64,000 nucleotides of DNA from Candidatus Kerfeldbacteria bacterium (GTDB lineage Bacteria > Patescibacteriota > Patescibacteriia > SBBC01 > CAIJZX01): the NCBI GenBank assembly GCA_016193315.1, contig JACPSJ010000001.1:406723-470722 (forward strand). The letters are read 5' to 3'. This document shows, one piece after another, positions 10,384-45,530 of this stretch. The number at the start of each line of letters is the position of its first letter. Positions within the stretch are counted from its first letter, which is position 1. A program made the position numbers and the translations under genes. The notes under the pieces are model-generated. The model worked only from the letters and a program-made list of their open reading frames with translations, searched no databases and was not told the origin of the DNA.

Positions 10384-10384
10384 C

Positions 10385-11220: not shown

Positions 11221-11265
11221 CGAAGATGCCACCTCGACCATCCTGGACTGTGGTAGACTAGCGAT

Positions 11266-12045: not shown

Positions 12046-12048
12046 CGG

Positions 12049-19100: not shown

Positions 19101-19105
19101 GGACT

Positions 19106-22710: not shown

Positions 22711-22720
22711 TAACATCACC

Positions 22721-23173: not shown

Positions 23174-23244
23174 CGTTTTTTCAGTATAGTCGGAATCTGG
23201 GTAACAGTCGGTAGAGACCAGGCCGACGCCGAAAATACCTGGCT

Positions 23245-25062: not shown

Positions 25063-25063
25063 G

Positions 25064-26819: not shown

Positions 26820-27161
26820 ATGATGCTTCAGATCCTGATTACCCTTTTTGTCTTCTTCGCCATCTCGCGGGTTTGGCTTCGTTACCGTGATGGCAGCATC
26901 GGCGTTCTCGGCACAGCCATGTGGACCCTTCTCTGGCTCCTTATCGCTGGCGTGGCTTGGTGGCCGGCCGTGACGACGCAACTGGCTCATCTCGTCGGCG
27001 TCAAACGCGGCGTCGATGCGGTCGTCTACTTATCGATTGTCGTCCTCTTGTATGGACTTTTTCGACTGTACGTCAAACTGGAGTTCATTGAGCACGAACT
27101 AACCTCGTTGGTTAGAAACCTGGCGTTGCGGGAAGGGGACCGAGGTCGGGCACAAAAATGA
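26820..27161 (+). CDS. DUF2304-like small membrane protein, the usual partner of DPM1-like GT2 genes
   Basis: 113 aa with 3 TM helices and a charged C-terminal tail. It follows the GT2 gene. Confidence 0.45.
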   Translation: MMLQILITLFVFFAISRVWLRYRDGSIGVLGTAMWTLLWLLIAGVAWWPAVTTQLAHLVGVKRGVDAVVYLSIVVLLYGLFRLYVKLEFIEHELTSLVRNLALREGDRGRAQK

Positions 27162-30581: not shown

Positions 30582-31309
30582 ACGATCAAAAAATCCAACA
30601 ATTGTACCGGGACGATGCGCCCAAGTACGACCGCGAGCGTTTCGCTGGTCGGCAAGGTCAGTTGCTCAACCAGCACCAATCCGCAGCCTTACTGAAGGCC
30701 CTGTCGGGTATTCAAAAAAACGCCCCAATTCTCGAAGTCGGCTGCGGCACCGGCCGGTTTCTTGAATTTCTTGAACATCAGGGATTCACAGATTTGACTG
30801 GCGTCGATCAATCTCCGGAAATGCTCGTCGAAGCTGCCAAAAAAACTCGGGCCCAACTGGTCCCAGGCGATGTCTACCGCTTGCCATTTGGCGCCGGATC
30901 GTTTAGTGCGGTTTTTTCCATTCACGTCATCATGCACCTCCAGCGACCGGCCACGGCACTCAGGGAAATGAGCCGGGTTAGCCGGAAACGCATTATTGTT
31001 GACATGAATAACCTTCTCAGCCTGTCGGCCGCCTCATCGATCGTTCGCCACGGGCAGAACGCTTGGCGCCGTTTGCGGGGCCGCCCAGCGGTGGCTACCG
31101 CGCCAAACCAATTTAGATTCAGGCAATTTGTGTCGATGGTGCCCGAGGCTGAGCTGCAACAAAAAATCATGTCCTACCCGTTGCCGCTGACCGGTCCAAT
31201 GCCAGGCATCTACCTGAAACACTACCAGCGACTAGCCAACCGCCTTGGTCCACTCGTGGCACCAAACTGGGCCTCGCAATATTTGCTGGTTTTTCAAAAA
31301 AGCAAATGA
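30578..31309 (+). CDS. Class I SAM-dependent methyltransferase
   Basis: ILEVGCGTGRFLEFL is motif I, and LVPGDVYRLPF is the post-I acidic motif. Confidence 0.75.
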   Translation: MNDQKIQQLYRDDAPKYDRERFAGRQGQLLNQHQSAALLKALSGIQKNAPILEVGCGTGRFLEFLEHQGFTDLTGVDQSPEMLVEAAKKTRAQLVPGDVYRLPFGAGSFSAVFSIHVIMHLQRPATALREMSRVSRKRIIVDMNNLLSLSAASSIVRHGQNAWRRLRGRPAVATAPNQFRFRQFVSMVPEAELQQKIMSYPLPLTGPMPGIYLKHYQRLANRLGPLVAPNWASQYLLVFQKSK

Positions 31310-32985
31310 ACGCTCATTCCAAAACAACTAGCACCCGCTTCTGGCTCGTTGGCGGCAGCTTGTTGATTACCGTGCTGTTAGCTATAACCATGTACTATCG
31401 GCCGGTATTTCGTTCACCGCTCTTGGCCCGCAGCTACGACGGCTTGTACCATCTGTCCATGCTCAAAAGGGGAATAGCCGAAGGCCAGTGGCAGGCAACC
31501 ACCGGCCTGTTCTGGGGTAGGCTCAATGCGACGTACCCACCCGGGTTTCGATATTATGCGCTCGGCCTGAAAGCCATGCTGCACCTCAATCAGCTAACCA
31601 CCCTTTCACGAATATCGATCGGTTTGATCATGGCGGGGGTACTGATCAGCTACTTCTTCGTGGCTCGTTTTGTATTACAGTCTAGCGTCCTCGGCTGGCT
31701 GGCGACACTGCTGGTGGTCTTCAGCTATTATCCGATGCGACGGCTATCATTTTTTTTGCCGGAAAACTTGGCGCTGCTGTGGCTGCTATTATTCTTAGCC
31801 GCCATCCACTCCCGTTGGCGGCCGTGGCTCAAATATAGTTTGGGTGGTGTCTTGTTAGCCGCCATCGCCCTGACGAATGTCCTGACGACCACCATCATCC
31901 TGGCGGCCTTAACCCTATGGTTGTCTATTCTCATTTGGCACGGCCGGGTCCGTGATGGTATTCACACAGCCATCATGGCCGCCGCCGCTTTGGTGGTCAC
32001 GTTACCGTTGCTTCGGACGGATAAATTCTGGCTTCACTACCTCCGACTATCGGTGCTGGCCGGCGCGGCTTTACTGTTGCTCGTCGCGGTGGCCAAGACC
32101 ATAACCCGCAATTTGCAGTCCTCAACTAAATCGTGGCTCGGATCGGCACTGGTGCTCCTGGCTATCGGTGGCCTCGTCGTACCATTGTTTTTTTTCAACG
32201 GCGGGTGGTTGAAACCATGGCTGACCAGTCGTTACTGGCCGGTAGTTGATTTGTCGTCGACCGTAGCCAATGTCTTTACTCATAACTTTTTAGTGAACGC
32301 CGAACGGCAAGTCAGCTTGCAACCCCTGATGACGTACCTGACTATCGGGGGGTTAGCCGTCTTAACCTGGCGCCGGCAGCTGTTCGATCAGCGTTTCGGG
32401 CTGGTGACCATTATCGTCGTACTCAACGCAGCCATCTATTTGCTCGGGCCATTTTTTGGGATTAACCCTTCGATCAATGCCCCGCGAGCGATGTTGTACC
32501 TGGCCTTGTTTGCGCCGATGCTGGCCGTTTTTTTTCTCCACCAACTCCAGCGAGCCTGGCGCTGGTCGTGGGTAACGCCGATGATCGTCGCGGTGATGGC
32601 GATCACTAGCGTGCCGCACATCATCCGCTTTGTCAGCCAAGCCGAAGTTCGCCCCCTTCCGCCGTCCGTTACTGACTACGTCGACACACACCTGAAGACC
32701 GGCCAATACCTGTTGACCGACGGTCGATCATTCCTGTGGTTGTATTACCGCAGCCCGCGACCGTTAGCATATCTTTTTTCCACCCCGCCTGTCGCGCCGG
32801 ATCAGCTCTTGGCCGATCAGACCGGACAGACCTTGACGACGAATCATGTCCAGTTCGTTCTCAGTACTCCGAACTACCAGCCGCTCACAGATCCCGCCGA
32901 CCCTAACCGGCCGATTCCCGTCAACCTTCGGCTGGTGGTTGATGATCAAGGATTCAGTCTTTACGAGCGTACGTCGGAACCGTGA
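31306..32985 (+). CDS. Large polytopic membrane protein with a C-terminal extracytoplasmic domain (candidate glycan polymerase or GT-C-type transferase)
   Basis: 559 aa with about 13 TM helices, embedded in the glycosyltransferase locus. Contains three T8 homopolymer tracts. Confidence 0.4.
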   Translation: MNAHSKTTSTRFWLVGGSLLITVLLAITMYYRPVFRSPLLARSYDGLYHLSMLKRGIAEGQWQATTGLFWGRLNATYPPGFRYYALGLKAMLHLNQLTTLSRISIGLIMAGVLISYFFVARFVLQSSVLGWLATLLVVFSYYPMRRLSFFLPENLALLWLLLFLAAIHSRWRPWLKYSLGGVLLAAIALTNVLTTTIILAALTLWLSILIWHGRVRDGIHTAIMAAAALVVTLPLLRTDKFWLHYLRLSVLAGAALLLLVAVAKTITRNLQSSTKSWLGSALVLLAIGGLVVPLFFFNGGWLKPWLTSRYWPVVDLSSTVANVFTHNFLVNAERQVSLQPLMTYLTIGGLAVLTWRRQLFDQRFGLVTIIVVLNAAIYLLGPFFGINPSINAPRAMLYLALFAPMLAVFFLHQLQRAWRWSWVTPMIVAVMAITSVPHIIRFVSQAEVRPLPPSVTDYVDTHLKTGQYLLTDGRSFLWLYYRSPRPLAYLFSTPPVAPDQLLADQTGQTLTTNHVQFVLSTPNYQPLTDPADPNRPIPVNLRLVVDDQGFSLYERTSEP

Positions 32986-34175
32986 AGATCCTAGTGACGG
33001 CGTTTGTCTACCTCGGCGAAGATGCCGGGTCGACGCACGTCTTCGAAATATGGAGACACCTGGCGAAACAACATCAAGTCACAATTCTCCTACCGCAGGC
33101 TTCCGAAATTCAAGTTCAAACATTCAATCAGATCATTAGCCCCCGGGTCATTCGCTTTGTCCCTGGCACGAGGCGCTGGCCGGGAGGCGGATTGGTTCGT
33201 CGGTTCGGTTACGTTTTGACCGCGGCCTGGTATGAGTTCTATGTTTTTGGCTACCTCGTTGGCCATGCCGTTGACGCGATTTATGTCCGCTTGATGTATT
33301 CAAGTATCTCGCCGTTGTTTTTTCGGTGGTTTCACCGGCCGTATGTAGTGGAAGTCAATGGCTTAGCTCACTTGGGGTCGGTGGTTCTTCGTCGGAACCT
33401 CTTGATACGATTGACCATGTCCTGGCAAGCCTTGATCGAGCGACGCATCCTCCGTGGCGCACGGCAGGTGGTCACCGTGACCGAAAAATTATCACAGGTC
33501 TTGAGCCGTATCTACGGGCTTGAGCGTCAGTCTATCACCGTCGTGCCAAATGGGGCCGACCCCGATCTCTTTCAGCCCATTGACTCGGCTCGACAAACAG
33601 TTAGCCTTGAGCCCCAAACGATCTATCTTGGCTTCGCTGGGCACCTCGCTCCGTGGCAGGGGATAGAGTACGTGGTCCGAGCGTTAGCCCTGCTGCCTAA
33701 GGATGTTCAGGCGCTCGTCATCGGCCAAGGACCGATGAAACAAGCCTGGGAATCGCTCGCCGCCGAGCTAGGAGTCGCCGATCGATGCCGTTTTACCGGG
33801 CTGGTTCCATACCCCCAAGTGCCGATCTACCTCAACGCCTGCGATATTATGGTGGCCCCGTTTACCGCCCGTCGCAATGCCGATCTCGGCATTTCGCCGC
33901 TGAAGTTGTATGAATACATGGCTTGTGCCAAACCCGTGCTAACGACCGATGTCCCGGGCGTGGCCGAGGTGGTGCGGAAGTATGATTGCGGGCTGGTCGT
34001 GCCGGCCGAAGACGCGCAAGAGTTGGCCAAGGGCGTCACGCAGTTACTCCAGCGTCGGGCTGAGTGGGCGGCGATGGGCCAGCGCGGTCGGCAGGCGGTG
34101 ATCGATGGGTTTTCCTGGGCCGCTCAAGCCGCGAAAGTTGAGCGAGTGGTGCTGGCCGCGGCTAAGCGGTCGTAG
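32982..34175 (+). CDS. GT4 glycosyltransferase
   Basis: …FTARRNADLGISPLKLYEYMACAKPVLTTDVPG… is a GT4 C-terminal domain. Confidence 0.75.
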   Translation: MKILVTAFVYLGEDAGSTHVFEIWRHLAKQHQVTILLPQASEIQVQTFNQIISPRVIRFVPGTRRWPGGGLVRRFGYVLTAAWYEFYVFGYLVGHAVDAIYVRLMYSSISPLFFRWFHRPYVVEVNGLAHLGSVVLRRNLLIRLTMSWQALIERRILRGARQVVTVTEKLSQVLSRIYGLERQSITVVPNGADPDLFQPIDSARQTVSLEPQTIYLGFAGHLAPWQGIEYVVRALALLPKDVQALVIGQGPMKQAWESLAAELGVADRCRFTGLVPYPQVPIYLNACDIMVAPFTARRNADLGISPLKLYEYMACAKPVLTTDVPGVAEVVRKYDCGLVVPAEDAQELAKGVTQLLQRRAEWAAMGQRGRQAVIDGFSWAAQAAKVERVVLAAAKRS

Positions 34176-35386
34176 AGCGCCAGAAGTTTTTTTGCTTCGA
34201 TTGCCCAGTTGAATCGCTGCTCGGCCGCTTGCCGGGCATTCCGCCGCATTTCCCTGTAAGCAGGTGATTCACAAACTTTACGTATTGCTGCAGCCATTGT
34301 TTTAGGCTTCGTGTCGGCAAAAAGTTCCCCCAATCGATTCTCCCGAATAAGTCTCCCCATCACCGGTAGATTTGTGGCGGCGATCGGCAGACCAGACATC
34401 ATAAACTCAAACAGTTTGTTTGGAGAAGCAAGTCGGTTGTTTTCGTTTGTTCCTTTGAACGGTATGACCCCAACTGCAGACGCCATGTTGTATTTGATTA
34501 AATCATCAAACGGGACAGGATCATGAAAGAAGACCCGCGGGGTTAGATGATGTGCTCTGGCCAACGATTGCAATTCGCTCATCTGTTTTTGGGGGGCTGT
34601 TAAAAACAACACCAACGCATAGTCAGAAGGGAGAAATTCTATGCACACAATGAGTTCCGGGACTGCGCGAGAATCATTCCAGCTACCCTGGTAGACGACT
34701 ATTTTTACTTTAGGGGCCAGGTCGAGTTGTTTATGGAGGTCAACGGGAACGGTATTTTTTTGCAGTTCTGGCACGTTATAAATCACTAGCGGATCAGGGA
34801 TCGAATATTTGGTTGCAAGACGATTTGCGATTACCGGATTAACGGTGATAACAGCATCAGCGTGGCGGATGTACTTTTGTTCCACGCGTCCGTAATACCA
34901 ACGAAGCCAAACTAAGTAGAAGAGGCCAACAATGGGGAATATGATGCTGAGACGTATCATGGCCAAGAATAGTTCATGGCTGTCATATACTACACGTACA
35001 CCCCGCTCTTGTGCGACTTTGGAACACGCCGACAAAGTATCGAGATCGTGCGCGTGGTAGATATCAGCGTCGATCCGGCGAAGTTCGATATAAACACGCC
35101 TTTGTGTTTCGTTACCAACTAAAAAAATAGGCCTGTAGTAACGAATAACCTCCCAGATTATTTTCAGATGGTTCGACGAAAATCGGAACGGTTTAATACG
35201 TCTGATGGCTATTCCGTCACGATTTTCTTTAGCGGTTGTTCGATCGCTCAACAACCCGACCACGGTTACGTCGTACCCGGCCTTGGCCAACGTTCGGGCT
35301 TCCTTTATCACCCGCTGGTCATGAACGACATCATTCATAACGGCCATTGCCACGCGTTTCCCTGGCATACTTGTTAGCGGAGACAC
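34124..35386 (-). CDS. GT4-like glycosyltransferase (AT-rich, about 46% GC); start uncertain (35386 or 35368)
   Basis: …VIPFKGTNENNRLASPNKLFEFMMSGLPIAATNLPVMGRLI… is a GT4 C-terminal region. Confidence 0.6.
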   Translation of the reverse strand: MSPLTSMPGKRVAMAVMNDVVHDQRVIKEARTLAKAGYDVTVVGLLSDRTTAKENRDGIAIRRIKPFRFSSNHLKIIWEVIRYYRPIFLVGNETQRRVYIELRRIDADIYHAHDLDTLSACSKVAQERGVRVVYDSHELFLAMIRLSIIFPIVGLFYLVWLRWYYGRVEQKYIRHADAVITVNPVIANRLATKYSIPDPLVIYNVPELQKNTVPVDLHKQLDLAPKVKIVVYQGSWNDSRAVPELIVCIEFLPSDYALVLFLTAPQKQMSELQSLARAHHLTPRVFFHDPVPFDDLIKYNMASAVGVIPFKGTNENNRLASPNKLFEFMMSGLPIAATNLPVMGRLIRENRLGELFADTKPKTMAAAIRKVCESPAYREMRRNARQAAEQRFNWAIEAKKLLALYDRLAAASTTRSTFAA

Positions 35387-36462
35387 TTGATTATAACCCG
35401 AACTATTTTTTCAGCAGCTCTGCCATCGCCATAGCTATTGCGGTGGACGATGGGACGGCGGATGTTTTTGAGGGCTTTAGAAATTGTTCGAGGGTCAGTG
35501 CCGACCAAGGTATTCCATCCTTCTTGAACAGTCTCGGTCCACTCGGTTTCCTCGCGCAAGGTGATACATGGTACAAACAGGAAATAGGCTTCTTTCTGAA
35601 GGCCGCCCGAGTCAGTCAGTATCACTTTTGCTTCACGAACAAGATCGACCATCGACTTGTAATCGAGCGGCTCGATGAGATGTAATTGATTTGACCGGAT
35701 CTTGTTCATAAGGCCAAATTTCCGAAGCATTTTTCTTGTTCTTGGATGAACGGGGAAAATAATCGGGAAATCAGCCTTCCTGAGAGCAAGAACAAGGTTA
35801 GTTAGCTTATCGCGATCATCAGTATTCCCCGCACGGTGTATCGTCAGTACCCCATATGATCGCTTGTGAATCCCGAACCCCTTTTGCATTTTCGGGAAGA
35901 CAGATGGGCTCTGAGCAGTATCTCGCAAAGCGTCTATCATAATGTCGCCAACGATGTGGACGCCTGCGTTTATTCCCTCTCGGCGAAGATTACGAGCGGC
36001 GGCAAGAGTCGGACAAAAATGTATAGCCGCGACGTGATCAGTCGTAACCCGATTGACTTCTTCGGGCATTTCCCAATTAAAGCTACGCATCCCACCTTCG
36101 ACATGAGCCAAAGGAATCCGAAGTTTTGCTGCCGCTAGTGCTCCGGCCAAAGTGGAATTCGTGTCGCCGTACACAATGATGAGATCTGGTTCCTCTTTTT
36201 TTAAAACCGTTTCTAGCCTGATGAGCATTTTGCCTGTTTGTTCACCATGGTCCCCGGAACCGATTCCTAAATCGTACTTTGGTTTCGGTAAGCCCAGATC
36301 TTTAAAAAAGACGCGAGACATTAAGAAATCATAATGCTGACCAGTGTGAACAATTACATGTCGATAACGTTTCTTCAGCGCCCGATCGAGCGGCCCTAGC
36401 TTGATAAATTGGGGCCGAGCGCCGACGATTGACAAAATTTTCTTCAAACGCTTTTTTTGCAT
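35374..36462 (-). CDS. wecB: UDP-N-acetylglucosamine 2-epimerase (non-hydrolysing)
   Basis: ILSIVGARPQFIKLGPL…HTGQHYD…YGDTNSTLAGALAAAKLRIPLAHVEGGMRSFN. About 43% GC. Confidence 0.85.
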   Translation of the reverse strand: MQKKRLKKILSIVGARPQFIKLGPLDRALKKRYRHVIVHTGQHYDFLMSRVFFKDLGLPKPKYDLGIGSGDHGEQTGKMLIRLETVLKKEEPDLIIVYGDTNSTLAGALAAAKLRIPLAHVEGGMRSFNWEMPEEVNRVTTDHVAAIHFCPTLAAARNLRREGINAGVHIVGDIMIDALRDTAQSPSVFPKMQKGFGIHKRSYGVLTIHRAGNTDDRDKLTNLVLALRKADFPIIFPVHPRTRKMLRKFGLMNKIRSNQLHLIEPLDYKSMVDLVREAKVILTDSGGLQKEAYFLFVPCITLREETEWTETVQEGWNTLVGTDPRTISKALKNIRRPIVHRNSYGDGRAAEKIVRVIIKCLR

Positions 36463-37517
36463 TGTTGATATAAGGTTATCATAAATTCTACACTATCGTC
36501 CCATCTGTATCGTTCAAACACAAATTCCCGTCCAGCTCGACCCATGTTTCGTCGGAGCGCTTCATCGCCTACTAGCCGGAGAATGTTTTTAGCTAGCGCC
36601 TCAGCATCACCAGGTGGAATAAGAAAGCCGGTTACTCCGTCTTTGACTACCTCTGGCAGGCCGCCAACGCGACTGGCCACCACCGGCAAACCGCAAGCCG
36701 CCGCTTCCAACGCGGCCACGCCGAACGATTCGCTCCGCGACGGCATGACCATCAAATCAGATCGACGCAACAGCTCGACGACTTCTCCCGATGTCAAACG
36801 TCCAACAAAAGTGACGTTTTGCTGTACGCCACTAGATCTAACCAGCCCATTGATCTGAGCATCGGCCTGATCAGTGATGAGGACGTGGACATCGGGATAG
36901 TCGCGAACGACGATGGCCAGGGCGCGCAGCAGTACATCGAACCCATAGATTGGTCGCAGTTTTTTTATAAAAGCAATCGCCAACCCATGTGGTTGTGGCA
37001 GCGTTCCGGGAGAGAAGACGGAGGTGTCAACTCCAAATGGAACGACTTCAACCGGACGTCGGCTGAGCTCCTGTGTCCGGTCGGCCAGGTAGCGCGAACT
37101 AGCGGTAATGATGGTCGCCCGGCGGAGCATCAGCCGCCTGACCCACTGAAACGTCGGGTGCGATTGTGATAATAGAATATCCGATCCCCAAACGGTGATG
37201 ATCACGTGGCGAAGGTTGGTGGTCGCGATAAGGTACCGAAGGCTCGGGCGGAGGTAATGGAGATGGATAATGTCCGGGTTGGTTTGTAGGATCGCTCGTC
37301 GCAGTCGATACCCGTCAACGACAGCCCTGATGTATCGTATGGCCGGCGGTCCGGTGCTCGGCCGAATAACGACCACGTTCACCGGCGCTTGCGTCCAGTC
37401 TGACTCACTCATCACCGTAATGTCATGACCGCGTTCTGCCAGACTGGTAGCCCAACGTTGAAGATGGATGCTGGCCGCGTCGCCGACGAGCACAACCCGA
37501 TAGAGTCCGGTGTTCAT
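36444..37517 (-). CDS. GT4 glycosyltransferase
   Basis: PSRSESFGVAALEAAACGLPVVASRVGGLPEVV. Confidence 0.8.
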   Translation of the reverse strand: MNTGLYRVVLVGDAASIHLQRWATSLAERGHDITVMSESDWTQAPVNVVVIRPSTGPPAIRYIRAVVDGYRLRRAILQTNPDIIHLHYLRPSLRYLIATTNLRHVIITVWGSDILLSQSHPTFQWVRRLMLRRATIITASSRYLADRTQELSRRPVEVVPFGVDTSVFSPGTLPQPHGLAIAFIKKLRPIYGFDVLLRALAIVVRDYPDVHVLITDQADAQINGLVRSSGVQQNVTFVGRLTSGEVVELLRRSDLMVMPSRSESFGVAALEAAACGLPVVASRVGGLPEVVKDGVTGFLIPPGDAEALAKNILRLVGDEALRRNMGRAGREFVFERYRWDDSVEFMITLYQQCKKSV

Positions 37518-38938
37518 TCTGGCATTGACTGAACTGGCAGCAATCGATTTTTCATTTGCCGAAATAACTGGCGATATAGGTGGAAATCGCTCGAGCGGAT
37601 GACTAACAAATCTCGCAGGCGATTCCCGGACAGACGGGCGTACGCCCGAGCCCGGAATAGGAACAGCAACGAGTAGGAAATAGTCGAGGCCGCAGCCGCG
37701 CCAGCCATGCCGTAGAAGGGAATAAAAATCAGATTGAGCACGATATTCATCACTACCGAAATGCTGTTTACCCTAGTATTAACCATCGGCAAGCCGCGAG
37801 CCGTGATGTCGTTGGCCAAGATTCTCGCCCCACTAACGAAAATTGTACCGAGCAGTAAAATATTGAATGGCAGAAGCACCGGCAAAAATCGGCTCGAGTA
37901 AAACCAGGTAATGAACCACTTTGAGAGCAGAGCCAAAATCCCGGCTCCGACGATGGTCAACCACATGATGTTGCGGGTCAATACCGGCGTCAGCCGGCGT
38001 CGTTGTGCTTCATCAACTTCGGCCGACATCCGGCTGTAGTGAATGACGCTGACCGATTCCGATAGTAACCACAACCGTTCGGTCAGGCCCGTGGCCACGG
38101 CGTAAAACCCGACCGTGGCCGGATTGGTCATGACGGCCAGGATCAACTGGTCAATTCGGAGGTGGAGAAAGGCGACGACGTTACTCAGCTGCGCCCGAAC
38201 CCCGAAGCTCAGTGATTCTTTGACATAGCCGCGGTCGAGTAGAAAAGAATACTGTCCCACAATTTTTTTTGTCGCCACACTCAAGATGACGCTGTTGATA
38301 AACGTCGAGCCAAAAAAACTAACCATCGCGGCCGGCAGCGTTAACGACCGGGTAAGAAATAACCCGCCCAGGATGGTGAATTGTACGAACACCTGGACGG
38401 AGGTCAGACCGTTGTAGAGACTAAATCGTTGGAGGCCCTGAGCAATGGCCACTTCATTGCTGTTGTAGAGCATGAACGGCAAGGCGGCAACCACGGCTAC
38501 AAAGGAGTAGATCGGCACATCCAAAAAAAACCGCTGGCGGAAAGCCAAGAACATCAGCATCGTCATGATTATGCCGATGGCCCCGAGGCCGAGGTTAAGC
38601 ATAATATTATTACCGGCGATCAGGCCGGGGGCGTATTTTTTTTTACCGAGGAGGTAGACAGTGGCCGAACTGAGGCCCGCCCCGACGAACAAAATAGCCA
38701 GCGACGGTACCAAGGTGGCTAAGGCGTAGATGCCCCGATCGTTCGGCCCCAATTCTCGAGCCAGGAGGATGGAGATGACCAGGCCGAAGAGGATATTGCC
38801 GACTCGAGTCATCAGAGTCAACGCGGTGTTCCGAACAAACGAGTGCGACATGTTCAGGAGCTCAATGGTACATTCTTTTTTACTGACTGACAAGTCTTTA
38901 GGAATCCAACGAAACCTGGTACTATGATATCCAGACAT
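37514..38938 (-). CDS. Polysaccharide biosynthesis flippase (Wzx-like, MOP superfamily)
   Basis: 474 aa with about 12 TM helices. The N-terminal FVRNTALTLMTRVGNILFGLVISILLAR pattern is typical of Wzx. Confidence 0.7.
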   Translation of the reverse strand: MSGYHSTRFRWIPKDLSVSKKECTIELLNMSHSFVRNTALTLMTRVGNILFGLVISILLARELGPNDRGIYALATLVPSLAILFVGAGLSSATVYLLGKKKYAPGLIAGNNIMLNLGLGAIGIIMTMLMFLAFRQRFFLDVPIYSFVAVVAALPFMLYNSNEVAIAQGLQRFSLYNGLTSVQVFVQFTILGGLFLTRSLTLPAAMVSFFGSTFINSVILSVATKKIVGQYSFLLDRGYVKESLSFGVRAQLSNVVAFLHLRIDQLILAVMTNPATVGFYAVATGLTERLWLLSESVSVIHYSRMSAEVDEAQRRRLTPVLTRNIMWLTIVGAGILALLSKWFITWFYSSRFLPVLLPFNILLLGTIFVSGARILANDITARGLPMVNTRVNSISVVMNIVLNLIFIPFYGMAGAAAASTISYSLLFLFRARAYARLSGNRLRDLLVIRSSDFHLYRQLFRQMKNRLLPVQSMPE

Positions 38939-39011
38939 GATTATCCGCCAGAAGTAAACTTCTCCTTATGATCTCGACGCTCAAACGCGACCTGCATATT
39001 CAAGATGTTTC

Positions 39012-40964
39012 TTGCCTAGGGCTATGGTTGGTGGTTCAGGGCCAGTGACCGCGGAGTTCGGTTGGGAGCAGCTGCTTCGTTGTCCCACGTGCGGTCAGGA
39101 GATCAGCCTTGGGGCGGACGATTGGCACTGTCCGAAAGGACACCGCGGCCGGATTGACCAGGCCGGCATCGTTCATTTTTCTGAACGCGATTATTATTAC
39201 CGCGAAGTTCCACGATCATTTTTTTCTGGCCTGCGGGTAACTGACTCACCTGAAGTTGGTCGACAAGCAGGACGTGAGGCAATCGCCGCCCTAGAACCGG
39301 CTGCGCGCGACAAACTTATTTCCTACGCCTTCGATCCTCGGCGCGGTGGCGTAGCCATTCTCGGCCGGACGGGCCCGGGTACGACGGTCTTGGATTTCGG
39401 CAGCGGTTGGGGCAATCTGACCGCCGTGGCCGCGCGTTTCGGAGCTCGTGTGGTCAGCGCAGACATGACCTATGAAAGTTTGTTGTATGACAGTCTGCAC
39501 AACAACACTAAAAACGTTTTGCGGATTCGAGCTGGTCAGCACCAAACGTTGCCGTTCGGCGACGCAGTCTTCGACACGATTTTTTTGAATGGCGTGCTAG
39601 AATGGTTGCCAGAAGGCTATCGGCTCAACCAAGATCCGAAAACCGTGCAAATTACCTATCTGCAGGAGTTCCGGCGCCTGTTGGCTCCCGGCGGGATCCT
39701 GGTCGTAGCGATCGAAAACCGTCACTCCTTCGCTTACTGGTTGGGTCGCCGGGAGGATCACACTGGCTTACGCTATGGCGCACTGCTGCCACGGTGGTCA
39801 GCGAATCTATACTCTCGGCTCGTTCGCCGACGTCCATACCGAACATATACGTATACTCAATCAGGGTATCGATTATTGTTTCAAGCCGGCGGCTTTGCTG
39901 ATCCTGTATTTCATATACCGCTGCCCCGGTACCGGTACTGGAATCGAATCATTCCAGAAAAAAAACTTTCAACCGCGAGGCTTTTTCAAAGCGGAGGGCA
40001 ACCGGGAGCGAAGAACTGGGTTGCCAGAACGATGATTCGCCAGCTGCAAGGCCGTGGCTGGCTCAAGCATTTCGTTCAAGACTATATTATCGCTACTTCC
40101 AAGCTCGAAGCTCCTCAATCGTCCCTACTCGACAGTACGTTAGCATCAATCATGAAATCAGCAGGCGAGCGCTTGGACGACGTTGATGAGCTGAGAGTTT
40201 CTTCAACTCAGACGCTCCATTTCTCCGGCCATCGGTGGTTTTACAAAGTCCCCCTCACAGACGCAGCCGCTGAACGCTTGCGGCGAGAGATCGATGCGCT
40301 AGTGACACTACGTGACTCAGATTTACAAAACCTGATCGTGCCCGAAGCGCAATGGGAAACGGGTCCGGACCGGGCGGTCTATACGAAACTGGTGGGGCGG
40401 TCTCCGCAGCGGCAAGCGGCGGTTGATGAGCAGTTAGTGGCGGATGTTTTACGACGACTCAGTCGCAGTGACCGTCTCGTACCACTGGGCGAGACCGATG
40501 CTTATCGCCGTTGGGTGACAGCCTTGCAGCAGAACCAGATGCCCGATTGGATCAATGCTCAAAGAGTTTTGAAACAACTTGAAACTTGGCAGGGCCAGGA
40601 AGTACGGGCCGGAATCGTGCACGGTGATTTTGTGTGGCAAAACATTATTATTCAACCTGGCGGCCAGGTGACGGTTGTGGATTGGGATCGTTATGAACCG
40701 CAATCTCCTCGCTTTCTTGATAGCCGAGCGTCCAGTATCGAAAAGCATGACGTCGGCGCCGACAGAATGTCAGCGCCAAAATTTTCTTCTTTGCCGACGA
40801 AAGTCGAGTATCTATTTTTTCTCTTCGACCGCATCGTGAAGGACGTTTCTGCCTATGCCCATCCGATATACATGGCACATGTCTGGCATAAAAAAAGAAA
40901 AACCGAATGGGATAGGGCCTGGAATGAAGTCCAAAAAAACCAGCGACCGAAGCCGCTGGGTTAA
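39012..40964 (+). CDS. Tri-domain fusion: N-terminal zinc ribbon, class I SAM methyltransferase, and a C-terminal APH/ChoK-like kinase domain
   Basis: CPTCGQEI…CPKGH zinc ribbon; VLDFGSGWGNLTAVAARFGARVVSADMT is MTase motif I; HGDFVWQNIII…VVDWDRYE is the Brenner motif (HGDxxxxN…D) of aminoglycoside/choline-kinase-like phosphotransferases. Confidence 0.6.
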   Translation: MPRAMVGGSGPVTAEFGWEQLLRCPTCGQEISLGADDWHCPKGHRGRIDQAGIVHFSERDYYYREVPRSFFSGLRVTDSPEVGRQAGREAIAALEPAARDKLISYAFDPRRGGVAILGRTGPGTTVLDFGSGWGNLTAVAARFGARVVSADMTYESLLYDSLHNNTKNVLRIRAGQHQTLPFGDAVFDTIFLNGVLEWLPEGYRLNQDPKTVQITYLQEFRRLLAPGGILVVAIENRHSFAYWLGRREDHTGLRYGALLPRWSANLYSRLVRRRPYRTYTYTQSGYRLLFQAGGFADPVFHIPLPRYRYWNRIIPEKKLSTARLFQSGGQPGAKNWVARTMIRQLQGRGWLKHFVQDYIIATSKLEAPQSSLLDSTLASIMKSAGERLDDVDELRVSSTQTLHFSGHRWFYKVPLTDAAAERLRREIDALVTLRDSDLQNLIVPEAQWETGPDRAVYTKLVGRSPQRQAAVDEQLVADVLRRLSRSDRLVPLGETDAYRRWVTALQQNQMPDWINAQRVLKQLETWQGQEVRAGIVHGDFVWQNIIIQPGGQVTVVDWDRYEPQSPRFLDSRASSIEKHDVGADRMSAPKFSSLPTKVEYLFFLFDRIVKDVSAYAHPIYMAHVWHKKRKTEWDRAWNEVQKNQRPKPLG

Positions 40965-41848
40965 GGGTGCAGGGAGGCGATTTTGTTCGCCAGTCGGATG
41001 GAGGCCCGACACTCCTCGAGTCCGAATCCTTGTCCGGCCAGAATCCGCCGGTAGACCTCGGCGTGGAGATCTTCGAATCCGTCGGTGAATTCGACGGACT
41101 GGTCGTCAACCAGCATGGTTCGCTGGCGATCACCAAGCGCGATCGACAGGTGCCAATCGACGGATGCCCGCTCCAGTATGAGAGTTCCCTCCACGGTCTC
41201 CCGGTTGGATTCCCTGACTTCGACGTGCTGTGCCGGACCGAAGACCCAGGTCAGCATGTCGAAAAAGTGGACGCCGATGTTCATGGCCAGGCCGCCGGAC
41301 TTCTCCGAATCGCCTTTCCACGAGTAGTGGTACCATGTTCCGCGAGGCGTGTGGTACGTCAGCTGAACATGGTGGTGTCCCAACCCGACATTGGTCTTGA
41401 GCTTCTGGACGGCCGGATGCAACCGCAGCTGCAAGACTGCCCACACCCGGTGGTTGAACTCCGCTTCGAACTCCTGGAGAGCGTCGAGGTTATGCGGCTT
41501 GATGACCACCGGCTTTTCGCAGATGGCGTCGGCATGAAGGCGCAGGGCCAACCGGATATGGGCATCGTGTAGGTAATTCGGACTGCAGATGACCACGTAG
41601 TCGACGCCCTCGCCCTTGCGGCGGAGCCTTTCGAGGTGTCGGTCGAACCGCTCAACCTCAGTGAAAAAGCTCGCTTTCGGGAAGTACCGGTCGATCTTGC
41701 CGACCGAATCGTTCGGGTCCGCGGCCGCGACGAGCTCGCCGCCGACGGATTGGATGGCCCGTAAGTGCCGTTCGGCGATGTAACCGGCCAGGCCGAGCAA
41801 GGCGAAGCGGCGGGGTGTGTTCGTGGGTCGGATCCGTTGCTCGCCCAT
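40961..41848 (-). CDS. Gfo/Idh/MocA-family NAD(P)-dependent oxidoreductase
   Basis: FALLGLAGYIAERHLRAI is the Rossmann N-terminus. ATG at 41848 is preceded by a perfect AAAGGAGG Shine-Dalgarno sequence 6 nt upstream. Confidence 0.75.
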   Translation of the reverse strand: MGEQRIRPTNTPRRFALLGLAGYIAERHLRAIQSVGGELVAAADPNDSVGKIDRYFPKASFFTEVERFDRHLERLRRKGEGVDYVVICSPNYLHDAHIRLALRLHADAICEKPVVIKPHNLDALQEFEAEFNHRVWAVLQLRLHPAVQKLKTNVGLGHHHVQLTYHTPRGTWYHYSWKGDSEKSGGLAMNIGVHFFDMLTWVFGPAQHVEVRESNRETVEGTLILERASVDWHLSIALGDRQRTMLVDDQSVEFTDGFEDLHAEVYRRILAGQGFGLEECRASIRLANKIASLHP

Positions 41849-41994
41849 CGTTCCTCCTTTCAGGTGCAACGTGTGCGTGGCTGGTTCGAAACTCGAAAGA
41901 ACTCCCTAATTTATTACCATGGACCGGCCGAATAGTCCAGTAGGGTCAGTTGGCGAACGGTCCGTTTTTTGCTACCCTAAAGCCCAGAAACGTC

Positions 41995-43542
41995 ATGGCT
42001 CATCTGCACCTCCCATCCCGTCGCGTCGTCCGGGCGATTAAGATTCTTATCGTTCTGGCGCCGGTTGTCCTCCTAGCCTGGCTGGTGAATCAGCGGTTTG
42101 TCTTGACTCCGACCGTCACGTTTAGTTACCGGCCCGGTACGAAGCCAGGCGCAGTCCAACCAGAGACGGGCAAGATTATCCGCAGCTACCGTTCAGCCTG
42201 GCGGGTTGACGACGATGTGGTGAAGGTCAAGGTTCGGATTCCGCGCGTCGTCGAAAGCGTCCGCTTCAAAGCTACGCTCTTGAACCGCAACCAGCCTGTT
42301 ATCCGGTTAGTCGCTGCGGGCCTGCCCGAATTTGGCGATCAGGTCCGGTTGATCCGCCATCGGACGCTCGACGAACTGGATTGGCCGCGCTTGCAAAACG
42401 ACCATCTGAATCTTTGGCAGCGTCCGAGCCGGCTGGTCACGCAGCCGGCGGTCGGACCGGACGGTCTGGCTACCACGACCTCCTTTGAGCAACCGGTCAG
42501 GCAGTACGCCGGCTTGGATGAGTTCTTTTCAAATTTACCACCGGTCGAAAGTTTCGCCACCGTGGATTTGGATCCGTTGCTGTTCGTCAGCGTCGCGAAC
42601 TACCAACCGTCCGCACAGCCGACGACGATTGCCCATGCTTTCCGGGGCAAACACACGCTGTACGTGTATGCGGCGGACGAAGATATTCGGTTGTCCTTCG
42701 AGAAAATCGATCTCAATCGCGACCGCCAACCCGATCCCTTAACGGTGACCGTTCGTAAACTGAGCCTGAATCCGATGGAGACGACGCTGTTGTTCCGGGC
42801 CGTTGTTCCAGACGACGGTAGTCAGTTAGACCAGAATCTCCATGGTCCGCCTCAGCCGGTCGACGTGATGGTCCCAAACGTCGTGGCCGGGCTCTACAGG
42901 ATCGACGTGGGGACGAGCGAAGACGTGATCTTCCGGAACCTGGTGAGTTACCAGCGGTACCTGGCTTTTCAAGACGCCATCTTCCTGGCGGACGGTCCGA
43001 CCTACACCGGTTCGGCGCCACCCTTTCGTCCACTCCAGATTCGGACGCACAGTCCGCGGGTATCCTTCCGCACGAAACATGACGAAGGCCGACAGCGGAT
43101 CTATTCCGGTCAGCAGACAGTCTTCCTCGATCAGGCCGGGTCACAGGTCCAGCTGAACAGTCTGCCCTCGGGAGCCACCATTGATTTGGAGAAGGGAGAC
43201 GTATTGATTGCCGGCCAGGGATTCATCACCATCGCCCCGGCCGTGTTACCGAGTCAGCCCCCGCGGGGACCGATCAGCGTTGGCAGCAAGAGTCTGGAGT
43301 CGATCGATTATCTGGTCGGCCGCTACAAACCACAATCGACCTTTGGTCGCGTAGTGATTGACGAATCCTATCGATTGTCACGTTTGCTATTGACGACCAA
43401 CGACCTACATTTTCAGCTTGAATTCCCAGGATTACGCGACAAACGGCGGGTGGTCGAACCGAGGCGCGTCTCTGCCCAGCTCGTTCGCGGGTCGTTTCCG
43501 TGGGGTAAGATCGTGAGGAGGATCGAAGGTCTCTTACCGTAG
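41995..43542 (+). CDS. Hypothetical large extracytoplasmic protein with an N-terminal TM anchor
   Basis: About 515 aa. ATG at 41995 was chosen over the TTG at 41950. Confidence 0.4.
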   Translation: MAHLHLPSRRVVRAIKILIVLAPVVLLAWLVNQRFVLTPTVTFSYRPGTKPGAVQPETGKIIRSYRSAWRVDDDVVKVKVRIPRVVESVRFKATLLNRNQPVIRLVAAGLPEFGDQVRLIRHRTLDELDWPRLQNDHLNLWQRPSRLVTQPAVGPDGLATTTSFEQPVRQYAGLDEFFSNLPPVESFATVDLDPLLFVSVANYQPSAQPTTIAHAFRGKHTLYVYAADEDIRLSFEKIDLNRDRQPDPLTVTVRKLSLNPMETTLLFRAVVPDDGSQLDQNLHGPPQPVDVMVPNVVAGLYRIDVGTSEDVIFRNLVSYQRYLAFQDAIFLADGPTYTGSAPPFRPLQIRTHSPRVSFRTKHDEGRQRIYSGQQTVFLDQAGSQVQLNSLPSGATIDLEKGDVLIAGQGFITIAPAVLPSQPPRGPISVGSKSLESIDYLVGRYKPQSTFGRVVIDESYRLSRLLLTTNDLHFQLEFPGLRDKRRVVEPRRVSAQLVRGSFPWGKIVRRIEGLLP

Positions 43543-43549
43543 ACAAACT

Positions 43550-43966
43550 ATGTTTTTGCGATGGCATAACGTTTGGGGGCCGACGCTGCGTGAATTAAAT
43601 CGCTGGATTTATGTGGTCTCAGTCACACTCTATCTCGGTCTGTTCTTGGTCGAAGACTTGGAGCCGGGGTTCGTCAGCTTGCACTTTAAGCTCAATCTCC
43701 CGCTGTGGATCGCGATGCTGAGCGGAGCGGTGTTGATTTTCGCCGCCGAGCAACACCGACCGCAGGAACGGACCCGATCGAAGTGGAGATGGGTCTGGTC
43801 GGCTGTCGTCGCCATCGGCAGCGGGCTGCTGGTGTGGTTTCGGATTCGACACCTGGGCGGCCTGGCCATCATAATCTCGATCCTCGCGACGTTGGTGGTG
43901 ATCGCGCTGGCCGCGGCGCTCGACGCGGACCGTGACCAACATGAACCAACCAGGTCGAGCGGCTGA
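43550..43966 (+). CDS. Small membrane protein (4 TM helices)
   Basis: 138 aa, hydrophobic. Co-directional operon context. Confidence 0.4.
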   Translation: MFLRWHNVWGPTLRELNRWIYVVSVTLYLGLFLVEDLEPGFVSLHFKLNLPLWIAMLSGAVLIFAAEQHRPQERTRSKWRWVWSAVVAIGSGLLVWFRIRHLGGLAIIISILATLVVIALAAALDADRDQHEPTRSSG

Positions 43967-45530
43967 CAAGATATTTGGACTAGCGGCCATTGGGTTAGCG
44001 GTCTTGTGGATGGCTGCTGCGGCCTGGGTCGTGTTTGGTACGAAGACGTACGGATCACCGGACGAAGCGGCGAACGCTTTTTTTATCCGACAGCTTGCGA
44101 CCGCGGGCACATTATCGGCAGACAGCAGCCAGCTGCCGGCCGGGAGCGGAGAGCAGTCGACATCCGCTCAGCTGGCCTATTGGCATCCGCGGAGCATGCA
44201 GGTTGACGGCCAGAAGCTCAAGCCGGGAAGCTTCTTGGGACTAGTGCTAGTCGGCGGCACGCTTGATTTTTTGACCTTTAACGGTGCCCACCGGCTTTTA
44301 ACGCCGTCATTGGCCTTGGTTGGGCTGTGGGCGCTCTACCTCATTCTCCGGCGGTTTTGGAACCAATGGTGGGCTCTGCTCGGCAGTAGCCTGGTGGCGC
44401 TCCATCCAGTGTGGTGGCAATTCCAAACCCGGCCATGGTTCCACAACGGTGCCTTTGCCTCGCTCCTGGTTATGGCCGGCTGGCGTCTCCTCCGGCTGTG
44501 GGAGGAGGGGACGGCCAGGAATGCAGCGTGGTTTGGGCTGGCTTTTGGTGCGGCTCTGTTTTTTCGCCCGGTTGAAGTGATTTGGGCTGGTCCACTGGTA
44601 GCCATTGTGTTGCTGGCCCAGCGACAATGGCGGAATCTAGTCATCGCCGCGACCATCACGCTGTTCGTTCAACTGCCGTGGCTGATATCCGGCTGGCAAC
44701 TCTACGGTCCGTCGCTCGGAGCGGGTTACTCAGCCGCCCAGCTGGATACTGAACCGGTCAGTGTTGGCGACGCTTTCTCGCCGCTGCCTGGGGTCTTCGT
44801 CCCGCCTGGTGGCTGGTCATGGAACTGGATGCAGAGTGCCTGGTGGTATTTGGTGATGATGGTTCCAGTCTGGTCGGCGGCCACCGCCGTGGCCCTGATG
44901 TTCTACTTTCTCCGGCTGCGAACGCAGCGGCTGAAGATGCTGAAAATCATCCTGGTTGGGATCATCCTGGCTTACTTCCTGAGCTATTACGGCAGCTGGG
45001 ACTTGTATCCGTTGGAACCGCCAACGCGCGTCGGTTCGCTTGCGTCGTATGCCCGCTACTGGCTGCCACTGTACGTGGCCATGGTCGTCGGGGTGTTATG
45101 GGTTTTGAAACGTCTCCGCCGCTTTCGTCTCATCTTGGCCGCGTCTATCATCGCCTTGCTGACCAGTCAGACTGTCGCCATTCTCTTCCATCCAACGTCA
45201 GGGTTGGTACGGCGACTCAAGAGCGAGGCCCTGGCCACCACCAAGCGTCAGACGATATTGGATCACACCCCGGCCGACGCCGCCATCGTGGCCGGTCATT
45301 TTGACAAACTGCTGTGGCCGGAGCGAATCGTTTCGTTCCGGCTGCCCCGGACGCCCGATGAATGGGATGCTTTCCGTCAACTGGCCACCACCAGACCGAT
45401 CTTTCTTTACGTCACTCCGCGCCAGTATCGTCTGTCCGACCTGCAGCGCCAACTTGCGCCGCGGCAGATGTCGATCACCCGCGATCGAGTTATTGGGGGT
45501 GATGAACTGTGGCGGGTATCGATCCGATGA
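43941..45530 (+). CDS. Polytopic membrane protein, GT-C-like (ArnT/PMT-like) candidate
   Basis: About 530 aa with 12 or more TM helices, large loops, and a C-terminal soluble region. Confidence 0.35.
   Translation: MNQPGRAADKIFGLAAIGLAVLWMAAAAWVVFGTKTYGSPDEAANAFFIRQLATAGTLSADSSQLPAGSGEQSTSAQLAYWHPRSMQVDGQKLKPGSFLGLVLVGGTLDFLTFNGAHRLLTPSLALVGLWALYLILRRFWNQWWALLGSSLVALHPVWWQFQTRPWFHNGAFASLLVMAGWRLLRLWEEGTARNAAWFGLAFGAALFFRPVEVIWAGPLVAIVLLAQRQWRNLVIAATITLFVQLPWLISGWQLYGPSLGAGYSAAQLDTEPVSVGDAFSPLPGVFVPPGGWSWNWMQSAWWYLVMMVPVWSAATAVALMFYFLRLRTQRLKMLKIILVGIILAYFLSYYGSWDLYPLEPPTRVGSLASYARYWLPLYVAMVVGVLWVLKRLRRFRLILAASIIALLTSQTVAILFHPTSGLVRRLKSEALATTKRQTILDHTPADAAIVAGHFDKLLWPERIVSFRLPRTPDEWDAFRQLATTRPIFLYVTPRQYRLSDLQRQLAPRQMSITRDRVIGGDELWRVSIR

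Follow-up and report, generated by a model that had tools for sequence, protein, structure and literature searches.

Kinase–methyltransferase fusions with known or probable roles in surface-glycan assembly

WbdD and Klebsiella pneumoniae O7 ORF6-N both make methyl phosphate (PMC3482155, PMC11231755). In ORF6-N, a methyltransferase-kinase terminator, the kinase is unrecognisable by sequence; ORF6 further contains a CBM and a coiled coil, ends in GT2 polymerase modules and works with an ABC transporter (PMC11231755). A further group, the Legionella Lcin_0519 kinase-methyltransferase family, is a conserved fusion for which modification of surface polysaccharide is predicted only; it is mainly proteobacterial, has no alpha-C helix, often has a coiled coil and has Wzm/Wzt neighbours (PMC9758233). 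Our literature search for methyl phosphate in a Wzx pathway found nothing. To our knowledge, the characterised methyl-phosphate installers all belong to ABC-transporter pathways and all carry coiled coils, and methyl-phosphate capping by a methyltransferase-kinase is known only from a few proteobacterial O-antigens of those pathways. In these O-antigens the cap controls chain length and licenses export.

A methyltransferase–kinase fusion gene in a glycan locus

The gene described here lies at 39012..40964 on the plus strand of the window, by which we mean the whole stretch of 64,000 nucleotides that was analysed. Its 650-aa product comprises a zinc ribbon, a class I SAM methyltransferase and an APH-fold kinase. 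This ORF starts with TTG; the NCBI model, 100% identical, takes an ATG start at 39024, four codons downstream, and has 646 aa. Neither TM segments nor an amphipathic tail are predicted in the protein, and a search of NCBIfam returned no specific model for it. Every motif quoted in an earlier note on this DNA was found, namely CPTC (aa 24-27), CPKGH (aa 40-44), VLDFGSGWG (aa 126-134), the post-I acidic residue D151 (SADMT), HGDFVWQN (aa 537-544) and VVDWDR (aa 555-560), and the HMM check of the catalytic domain boundaries placed both Pfam Methyltransf_11 and APH above their gathering scores.

An assembly or frameshift artefact, or a fusion with one half reduced to an inactive pseudo-enzyme, would be in keeping with the source, a metagenome-assembled genome, and with the zinc ribbon of this copy, which lacks one Cys ligand. 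We regard this explanation as having next to no chance of being right, because the ORF is uninterrupted across both domains, the AF2 model of the protein stays confident from one domain into the next (pLDDT 86.4, pTM 0.89), and the catalytic residues of both domains are intact by motif check and in alignments. The same fusion occurs in half of the related loci that we classified (43 of 86) and in many phyla, and most of the 150 best of the 1,319 clusters matching at E<=1e-30 match over the full length. These recurrent fusion loci and full-length matches effectively refute an artefact, and the frameshift joining two separate genes, which the earlier note had named as the event that would overturn its reading, is contradicted by the continuous ORF, the recurrence of the fusion and the confident model of the junction.

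Divergent from the fusion gene, and 73 bp upstream of it, is a Wzx-type (MOP, Polysacc_synt) flippase (37514..38938, minus strand), with a GT4, a UDP-GlcNAc 2-epimerase and a second GT4 in the same orientation as the flippase (34124..37517, minus strand). The plus-strand genes at 27158..34175 encode three GT4 proteins, a 243-aa class I methyltransferase, a 559-aa protein and a fourth GT4; the 559-aa protein has 11 TM-like segments without a family match and is possibly a polymerase or GT-C-like. On the other side, a Gfo/Idh/MocA sugar oxidoreductase (40961..41869, minus strand) is convergent with the fusion gene, the stop regions overlapping by 4 nt, and is followed by a 530-aa single-pass protein without a family match and a PMT_2-type GT-C glycosyltransferase (41950..45530, plus strand). 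The glycan context proposed earlier is therefore present on both flanks, with Wzx and a GT cluster on the upstream side and an oxidoreductase and GT-C downstream.

The methyltransferase half and its zinc ribbon

The Rossmann core of the methyltransferase (aa 119-234; 39366..39713, plus strand) holds motif I, D151 and the invariant segment N193-G-V-L-E197-W198. Pfam Methyltransf_11 matches aa 127-232 with 52.7 bits (GA 21.2), and the domain combines a GxGxG motif I, an acidic residue after beta2 and a Rossmann fold, as class I SAM methyltransferases do; HMM and fold matches alike bear out the proposed SAM methyltransferase. Its structural neighbours are generic, spanning rRNA, small-molecule, N-, O- and C-methyltransferases, and so do not single out an acceptor atom.

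Strand beta5 is followed by a family-specific insert (aa 235-296; 39714..39899, plus strand; ENR...EDHTGLR.GALLPR...RPYRTYTY), the best-conserved segment of the protein at 60% mean pairwise identity, which we infer to be an acceptor-binding lid. In the AF2 secondary structure, a beta6-beta7 hairpin then ends the methyltransferase fold and leads into a helical linker (aa 297-365; 39900..40106, plus strand). Invariant Arg and His residues in the alignment of the putative pocket region are R237, H250, R261 and R277. Such a putative pocket, rich in invariant Arg, His, Tyr and Glu, suggests that the methyltransferase sees one chemical group in every organism. Because this pocket is near-invariant while the glycan loci and the kinase domains are highly variable, the acceptor would be a constant group such as phosphate rather than a range of diverse sugars.

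N-terminal to this core is a Trm112p/RlmA-type zinc ribbon (aa 20-48; 39069..39155, plus strand) that retains the conserved C24, C27 and C40. The window protein lacks the fourth Cys through a deletion (C40-P-K-gap-G-H44), and the CxxC...CxxC pattern is kept by all 12 aligned relatives; H44 is a possible substitute zinc ligand. Zn_ribbon_RlmA matches the window protein with 16.5-21.2 bits, below its GA of 27, and 6 of 13 relatives, but not the window protein, have a match to the Trm112p profile (best E 7e-6). The zinc ribbon claimed in the earlier note is consequently upheld as to its motifs, but in this copy it is degenerate and falls short of the profile threshold. RlmA(I), the 23S rRNA m1G745 methyltransferase, is the top fold match in structure searches, and together with Trm112-methyltransferase complexes it provides a comparison for the pairing of ribbon and methyltransferase; RlmA, however, has neither the kinase nor the conserved insert of the fusion family. 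Nothing in the context of the fusion gene points to an RNA substrate. In the fusion protein the ribbon probably caps the methyltransferase structurally, in the manner of Trm112 and RlmA.

The kinase half

The C-terminal domain (aa 366-650; 40107..40961, plus strand) has an APH/ChoK/FN3K-type fold. Pfam APH (PF01636) matches aa 408-562 with 40.6 bits (GA 23.2), and the catalytic residues comprise the beta3 Lys (K412), a Brenner motif HxDxxxxN (H537-G-D539...N544), the Mg-binding D557 of VVDWD and, further downstream, D570. Catalytic-loop residues and the Mg-binding Asp are conserved in 69-73 of 73, and position 412 is Lys in 15 of 18. The modelled domain is a bilobal ELK fold to which small-molecule kinases are closest, with an alpha-C helix at aa 417-434 and a C-terminus formed by a C-lobe helix at aa 623-642. 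Profile score, fold and motifs thus agree with the APH/ChoK-like kinase proposed earlier, and in HMM matches, model and alignments both halves of the protein resemble active enzymes, in fold as in their near-invariant catalytic residues. The likeness to aminoglycoside phosphotransferases, choline kinases and fructosamine-3-kinases (PF01636) extends to the fold, the HGDxxxxN and DWD motifs and the downstream Asp. Unlike those free-standing enzymes, whose substrates are antibiotics, choline or glycated amines, the fusion kinase occurs in glycan loci and is obligately coupled to one particular methyltransferase.

A widespread module beside Wzx flippases

At least 1,319 clusters at 50% identity match the protein at E<=1e-30, from many bacterial phyla, CPR and some archaea, and the 150 best of these 1,319 clusters are mostly 620-720 aa long. 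The 86 classified loci that contain the 43 fusions include three that are duplicates of earlier loci. Among the 43 loci with an unfused methyltransferase, 32 have a kinase gene immediately next to it in the same orientation; Thermotalea metallivorans, a cultured organism, carries a split pair (9962-11044 and 11037-12335). Methyltransferase and kinase make up an obligate module whose two parts are either one gene or neighbouring genes. The setting of this module is a glycan locus, and its immediate neighbour is very often a Wzx flippase: 44 of 83 loci contain a Wzx-type flippase, which in 24 lies <=300 bp from the module, and homologues of the window Wzx adjoin the module in other loci. Wzm-like ABC permeases were found in 3 of the 83. 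Conservation of genome context across phyla, the fused or split module included, thus accords with the glycan setting, and the claim of a bifunctional enzyme gains strong support from halves that are either fused or adjacent on one strand and that both retain near-invariant catalytic residues. One distant member of the family is located in a PKS cluster. A literature search for a characterised member of this methyltransferase–kinase family found nothing.

Comparison with WbdD

WbdD of E. coli O9a and K. pneumoniae O3 (PDB 4AZS, 4AX8, 4UW0), a bifunctional kinase-methyltransferase that terminates O-antigen chains, shares with the fusion protein a single polypeptide with a class I SAM methyltransferase on the N-terminal side of a kinase of protein-kinase-like fold, a cytoplasmic location and a gene in a glycan locus. 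At the Pfam level the two architectures are alike, E. coli HS WbdD having Methyltransf_11/25/31 and APH. In a Foldseek search of the PDB, WbdD is aligned over both halves (593-616 columns, E 7e-8), as among the matches is only Rickettsia PKMT2. Sequence comparison did not reach beyond superfamily motifs: hhalign of the family profile against E. coli HS WbdD gave 77 columns of SAM motif at 74% probability, the kinase profile gave 29 columns at 3.7% against the WbdD kinase, and PDB sequence and profile searches returned generic motifs only, with WbdD not among the 60 matches listed. We therefore rejected membership of the WbdD family and retained the analogy.

The two proteins also differ where the methyl acceptor is expected. 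His132-His133 of WbdD, the phosphate-contacting pair needed for phosphate methylation, aligns with the invariant Glu197-Trp198 of the fusion family, and an acidic residue by the methyl acceptor would suit direct phosphate binding no better, and perhaps less well, than a role as general base or metal site. The phosphate acceptor site of WbdD also includes an Arg; in the fusion family, invariant Arg and His residues are found at other positions of the putative pocket region. WbdD ends in a coiled coil that serves as molecular ruler and has a membrane/polymerase-binding region, and it works with a Wzm/Wzt ABC transporter, whereas the model of the fusion protein has no extended helix and its gene adjoins Wzx. 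ORF6-N and Lcin_0519 share the architecture of methyltransferase and kinase; as far as they are known from their descriptions, the fusion family is otherwise set apart from both. Its kinase passes Pfam APH, unlike that of ORF6-N, and the window protein lacks the CBM, coiled coil and GT2 modules; compared with Lcin_0519 it has a modelled alpha-C helix, Wzx neighbours and another taxonomic spread, and no coiled coil.

Proposed function and alternatives

That the protein is a real bifunctional kinase and methyltransferase module in glycan assembly is very likely. Our working proposal, whose chances as a whole we put a little short of even, is a soluble cytoplasmic glycan-tailoring enzyme of a Wzx-dependent surface-glycan pathway that carries out phosphorylation and then methylation, the product possibly being a methyl phosphate. 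The APH-type kinase would use ATP to phosphorylate a sugar hydroxyl of a polyprenyl-diphosphate-linked repeat unit at the cytoplasmic face; since the kinase domain is poorly conserved (19% identity across the family), it is presumably tuned to the sugar of each organism. The methyltransferase would then methylate the phosphorylated product with SAM, most likely on the new phosphate, to give a methyl-phosphate group, and the neighbouring Wzx would flip the modified unit. Action of both activities in sequence on one substrate is slightly favoured. A methyl-phosphate-type decoration is plausible by likeness to WbdD and K. pneumoniae O7 ORF6-N, and on that analogy a product that is specifically methyl phosphate is possible, if somewhat doubtful.

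Two independent decorations, in which the kinase phosphorylates one position of the repeat unit, or ends at a phosphomonoester, while the methyltransferase O- or N-methylates another atom (a sugar hydroxyl or a DegT-made amino group), the two being fused through a common lipid-linked intermediate, are rather unlikely in our judgement, but several observations speak for them. The invariant Glu197 stands where WbdD has its catalytic or acceptor-contacting His and could serve as a general base in O/N-methylation; it presumably also corresponds to the catalytic His of phosphoethanolamine N-methyltransferases. Genes for DegT aminotransferases are common near the module (26 of 83 loci) and leave room for amino-sugar methylation, although none was found in the window locus, and the closest methyltransferase folds include the sugar O-methyltransferases RebM and AtmM and the N-methyltransferases CypM, CgnL and PMT. 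On the other hand, tight coupling of these two activities by fusion and fission is more typical of consecutive steps, the near-invariant methyltransferase pocket set against variable loci and kinases argues for a constant acceptor group, and most loci have other, small class I methyltransferases that would serve ordinary O/N-methylation.

Two further schemes would place the enzyme away from the lipid-linked unit. NahK, maltokinase, glucosamine kinase and MTR kinase are sugar kinases of APH-type fold, and an anomeric or other sugar kinase could feed nucleotide activation, with the methyltransferase acting on a sugar phosphate or NDP-sugar before glycosyl transfer. This precursor-level role appears improbable: the most position-specific neighbour is Wzx rather than a nucleotidyltransferase, nucleotidyltransferase clusters occur in 6-7 of 83 loci each and none was found in the glycan locus of the window, and anomeric kinases rank below FN3K, ChoK and APH in the kinase comparison. 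Choline/ethanolamine kinases and phosphoethanolamine methyltransferases are both among the fold matches, as expected if an ethanolamine/choline-type kinase and a phosphoethanolamine-N-methyltransferase-like domain made phosphocholine or a related phospho-base for attachment to the glycan. We consider this very improbable, because dozens of unrelated class I enzymes match at least as well as such methyltransferases do, the kinase is too variable for a constant small substrate, Wzx adjacency points to a lipid-linked one, and neither a LicC cytidylyltransferase nor a LicD phosphocholine transferase was found among the 18-56 kb ORFs or the large window ORFs scanned. With its partners missing, its methyltransferase matches non-specific and the kinase hypervariable, the phosphocholine pathway was set aside.

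Implications for Wzx-dependent glycans

A large, phylogenetically broad, Wzx-coupled methyltransferase and kinase family would extend the enzyme type that carries out methyl-phosphate capping. More speculatively, and with a low probability in our own estimate, the family may be the Wzx-pathway counterpart of ABC-pathway cap-and-export, widespread in uncultured phyla, CPR and some archaea: a phospho-methyl tag on the lipid-linked unit or oligosaccharide would act as a recognition or completion signal for the adjacent Wzx, and could also block elongation, fixing length without a coiled-coil ruler. If the chemistry is similar to that of the known systems, phospho-methyl tailoring of glycans would enter the Wzx/Wzy world and lineages whose surface glycans are barely known, and would offer a testable handle on how Wzx flippases recognise their substrates. 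Even if the chemistry differs, the fused or split module together with Wzx is a clean neighbourhood signature by which thousands of 'methyltransferase domain-containing proteins' could be annotated.

Domain architecture and conservation of the fusion protein

The ORF at 39012..40964 (+) encodes a 650-aa protein from a TTG start; the identical NCBI model, which comes from a MAG of Candidatus Kerfeldbacteria, has 646 aa and begins at an ATG four codons downstream. The position, size and every motif quoted in the earlier note were recovered, namely CPTC (aa 24-27) and CPKGH (aa 40-44) of the zinc ribbon, VLDFGSGWG (aa 126-134) with D151 as the post-I acidic residue of the methyltransferase, and HGDFVWQN (aa 537-544) and VVDWDR (aa 555-560) of the kinase. 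Both catalytic domains scored above their Pfam gathering cutoffs, Methyltransf_11 at aa 127-232 (52.7 bits against 21.2) and APH at aa 408-562 (40.6 bits against 23.2). An AlphaFold2 model built with an 18-sequence family alignment was confident (pLDDT 86.4, pTM 0.89) and displayed, in sequence order, a small beta-ribbon, a helical stretch, the Rossmann core of the methyltransferase (aa 119-234), an insert (aa 235-296), a beta6-beta7 hairpin with a helical linker, and a bilobal kinase (aa 366-650), so the reading of the C-terminal region as APH/ChoK-like was right. No hydrophobic segments were found in the protein, and we therefore regard it as cytoplasmic. The zinc ribbon held up in part: both Cys-containing motifs are present, but the best match, Zn_ribbon_RlmA at 16.5-21.2 bits, falls below the cutoff of 27, and the fourth Cys is gone through a one-codon deletion (C40-P-K-gap-G-H44, aa 40-44, window 39129-39143). 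CxxC...CxxC is kept in 12/12 relatives in the ribbon alignment, and Trm112p matches the ribbons of 6/13 family members (best E 7e-6). The ribbon of the window protein may have lost zinc binding or may use His44 instead.

Catalytic residues are retained in fused and split forms alike. Kinase residues H537, D539, N544, D557 and D570 are kept in 69-73 of 73 sequences; on the methyltransferase side G130, G194, E197 and W198 are kept in 84/84, N193, Q213, E235, H250 and R261 in 83/84, N236 in 82/84, R237 in 81/84 and R277 in 78/84. Pairwise identities were calculated by segment for 18 full-length members, giving means of 40% for the methyltransferase half and 19% for the kinase half (34% around the catalytic loop); the methyltransferase insert ENR...EDHTGLRFGALLPR...RPYRTYTY was the most conserved of all segments at 60%. 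From this asymmetry we infer that the methyltransferase sees one unvarying chemical group and that the kinase is tuned to acceptors that vary.

Glycan locus in the window

The fusion gene lies within a glycan locus. Upstream, the + strand carries a group of three GT4 genes, a small methyltransferase of class I, a protein of 559 aa with 11 TM-like segments (31306-32985) and a fourth GT4, and the - strand carries a GT4, a UDP-GlcNAc 2-epimerase, a further GT4 and a Wzx-type flippase, the last divergent from the fusion gene with 73 bp between the two starts. Downstream lie a Gfo/Idh/MocA oxidoreductase gene in convergent orientation, a single-pass protein of 530 aa (41950-43542, +) and a PMT_2-type GT-C (43932-45530), in line with the gene context described from the sequence alone. 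Neither the 559-aa nor the 530-aa protein has a Pfam or NCBIfam match. Further upstream of the GT4 genes lie GtrA, two GT2 genes and two SDR epimerase/dehydratases. The SDR ORFs (24031-25062 and 24887-25987) overlap by 176 nt as listed, and the second probably starts at a codon later than the mechanical ORF call. The GtrA-like protein and a small GT2 sit side by side (22550-23949), with GT-C-type membrane proteins (PMT_2, 11-TM) in the same region, a layout resembling the extracytoplasmic glycan-modification systems termed 'three-component' in the title of PMC11127046. The genes immediately upstream of the locus (18401-22710) encode a protein with a PDZ domain and an S8 subtilase of 815 aa that has FG-GAP repeats. 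G+C drops to 0.50-0.54 at 34001-40000, against 0.56-0.63 elsewhere, spanning the GT4, epimerase, Wzx and methyltransferase-kinase block, a pattern typical of glycan cassettes that vary or are exchanged horizontally. Elsewhere the window carries ordinary chromosomal genes (dnaX, bipA, malQ, pgi, murA, ctp, type IV pilus genes and mraY-murD-ftsW-murG).

Fusion, fission and spread of the family

A word-indexed search returned 18 homologues of 577-675 aa (28-39% identity, most with >70% query coverage) and one further homologue without the kinase, and an exhaustive profile search gave 1,319 clusters (50% identity, E<=1e-30), of which the top 150 all scored below 1e-101, most of them 620-720 aa and spanning both domains. 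Scanning species-representative genomes yielded 80 loci, almost all from uncultured sources, in Patescibacteria, Chloroflexota, Verrucomicrobiota, Planctomycetota, Omnitrophota, Gemmatimonadota, Acidobacteriota, Desulfobacterota-type lineages and Pseudomonadota, and in the archaea Bathyarchaeia, Methanoperedens and Methanoregula. Separate HMMs for the two enzyme parts were run against the ORFs of all related loci. A fused protein was found in 43 loci, and in 32 a methyltransferase of ~350 aa directly adjoins a same-strand kinase ORF (26 with the kinase downstream, 6 with it upstream), and in many of these pairs the stop of one gene and the start of the next overlap or lie apart by just a few bases; the methyltransferase stood alone in 11 loci at the thresholds used. 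That the two enzymes come either fused or as neighbours strongly indicates that their activities work together. The pattern also rules out the frameshift artefact of assembly that the earlier note had raised as a possible origin of the fusion, and we consider the chance of an artefact negligible.

Several members depart from the common architecture. Two Verrucomicrobiia loci (L014, 9899-12850; L019, 9866-12871) encode proteins of ~983-1001 aa with ~330 extra C-terminal residues past the kinase, and the homologues P0084 (1007 aa) and P0095 (1061 aa) carry long N-terminal extensions. Some split loci have two kinase-like ORFs per methyltransferase, in tandem downstream of it (L064, 2990-6155) or one on each side (L040, 2703-6538). 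Archaeal MAGs hold the methyltransferase in loci L048, L057 and L083, with an adjoining kinase in Bathyarchaeia and Methanoregula and none detected in Methanoperedens nitroreducens; the archaeal members imply either that glycan pathways of archaea use the enzyme or that it was transferred between domains. The distant member P0015 (25% identity; loci L004 / L005) is flanked by large PKS genes of type I and by a thioesterase, not placed in a glycan locus, which suggests recruitment of the module to natural-product tailoring.

Association with Wzx-type flippases

Neighbouring genes were clustered over 83 non-redundant related loci, and these families recurred: GT4 in 40, GT2 in 29, DegT aminotransferases in 26, SDR dehydratases in 12-19, and GT9 and hexapeptide acyltransferases in 11 each, along with extra methyltransferases, rSAM-SPASM, B12-rSAM, UDP-GlcNAc 2-epimerase, cytidylyltransferases and NeuB. 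Of all neighbours, a Wzx-type MOP flippase was the most specific in position, present in 44/83 loci and within 300 bp of the module in 24, of which 22 share the module's strand; Wzm-like ABC-2 permeases were found in only 3/83. Clear homologues of the window Wzx adjoin the module in locus L001 (E 8e-45) and lie one gene away in L006.

Comparison with known methyltransferase-kinases and proposed function

WbdD of E. coli O9a, ordered methyltransferase, kinase, coiled coil, adds a phosphate to the O-antigen's terminal mannose, which it subsequently methylates on that phosphate (PMC3482155). A second, independent enzyme, K. pneumoniae O7 ORF6-N, with a divergent APH-like (AmiN-like) kinase domain, was shown in 2024 to place a 3-O-methyl phosphate on terminal rhamnose (PMC11231755), and Legionella Lcin_0519 represents a third family, predicted only (PMC9758233). 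The E. coli HS WbdD (L089:17966-20092(-), 708 aa, between wbdA and wzt) shares the Pfam-level architecture of the window protein (Methyltransf_11/25/31 + APH + Pkinase), but in hhalign only 77 columns around the SAM motif aligned with the family profile at 74% probability, and the kinase profiles aligned over no more than 29 columns at 3.7%. The SAM-motif alignment places H132-H133 of WbdD, which are required for phosphate methylation, opposite the family's invariant E197-W198. All three are tied to Wzm/Wzt ABC transporters, whereas the present family is tied to Wzx; it lacks the coiled coil found in WbdD and ORF6-N and described as common in Lcin_0519, and it adds a zinc ribbon and an insert specific to the family. 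In our literature search no paper placed methyl phosphate in a Wzx pathway.

The two enzyme halves are intact and form an obligate module, within glycan loci and coupled to Wzx. The family is very probably one of bifunctional glycan kinases and methyltransferases. The kinase would first add a phosphate to a sugar hydroxyl on the lipid-linked repeat unit, still in the cytoplasm; its product would next be methylated by the methyltransferase, and Wzx would flip the modified unit. We tentatively favor methyl phosphate as the final group, because both characterized methyltransferase-kinase fusions make exactly this group and because the Arg/His/Tyr-rich methyltransferase pocket is conserved where the kinase is variable. 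Against it count the Glu-Trp pair where WbdD has His-His, the generic nature of the closest methyltransferase folds, and the frequent DegT aminotransferases, with which methylation could fall on a different atom. Independent decoration, with a phosphate and a separate O- or N-methyl group, is the strongest competitor, although we consider it rather unlikely. A sugar kinase with methylation at the precursor level appears improbable, and synthesis of a phosphocholine-type head group more improbable still. The observation of the earlier note is confirmed and its interpretation supported in part: the domains, their pairing and the glycan context stand, while a methyl-phosphate-type group is plausible by analogy with WbdD and ORF6-N.

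Methyltransferase-kinase glycan modifiers are already known, and in principle the family is unsurprising; what deserves attention is that it is large, uncharacterized and tightly linked to Wzx. We conclude that it is a distinct, very widespread, Wzx-linked lineage of methyltransferase-kinase glycan modifiers and has no molecular ruler.
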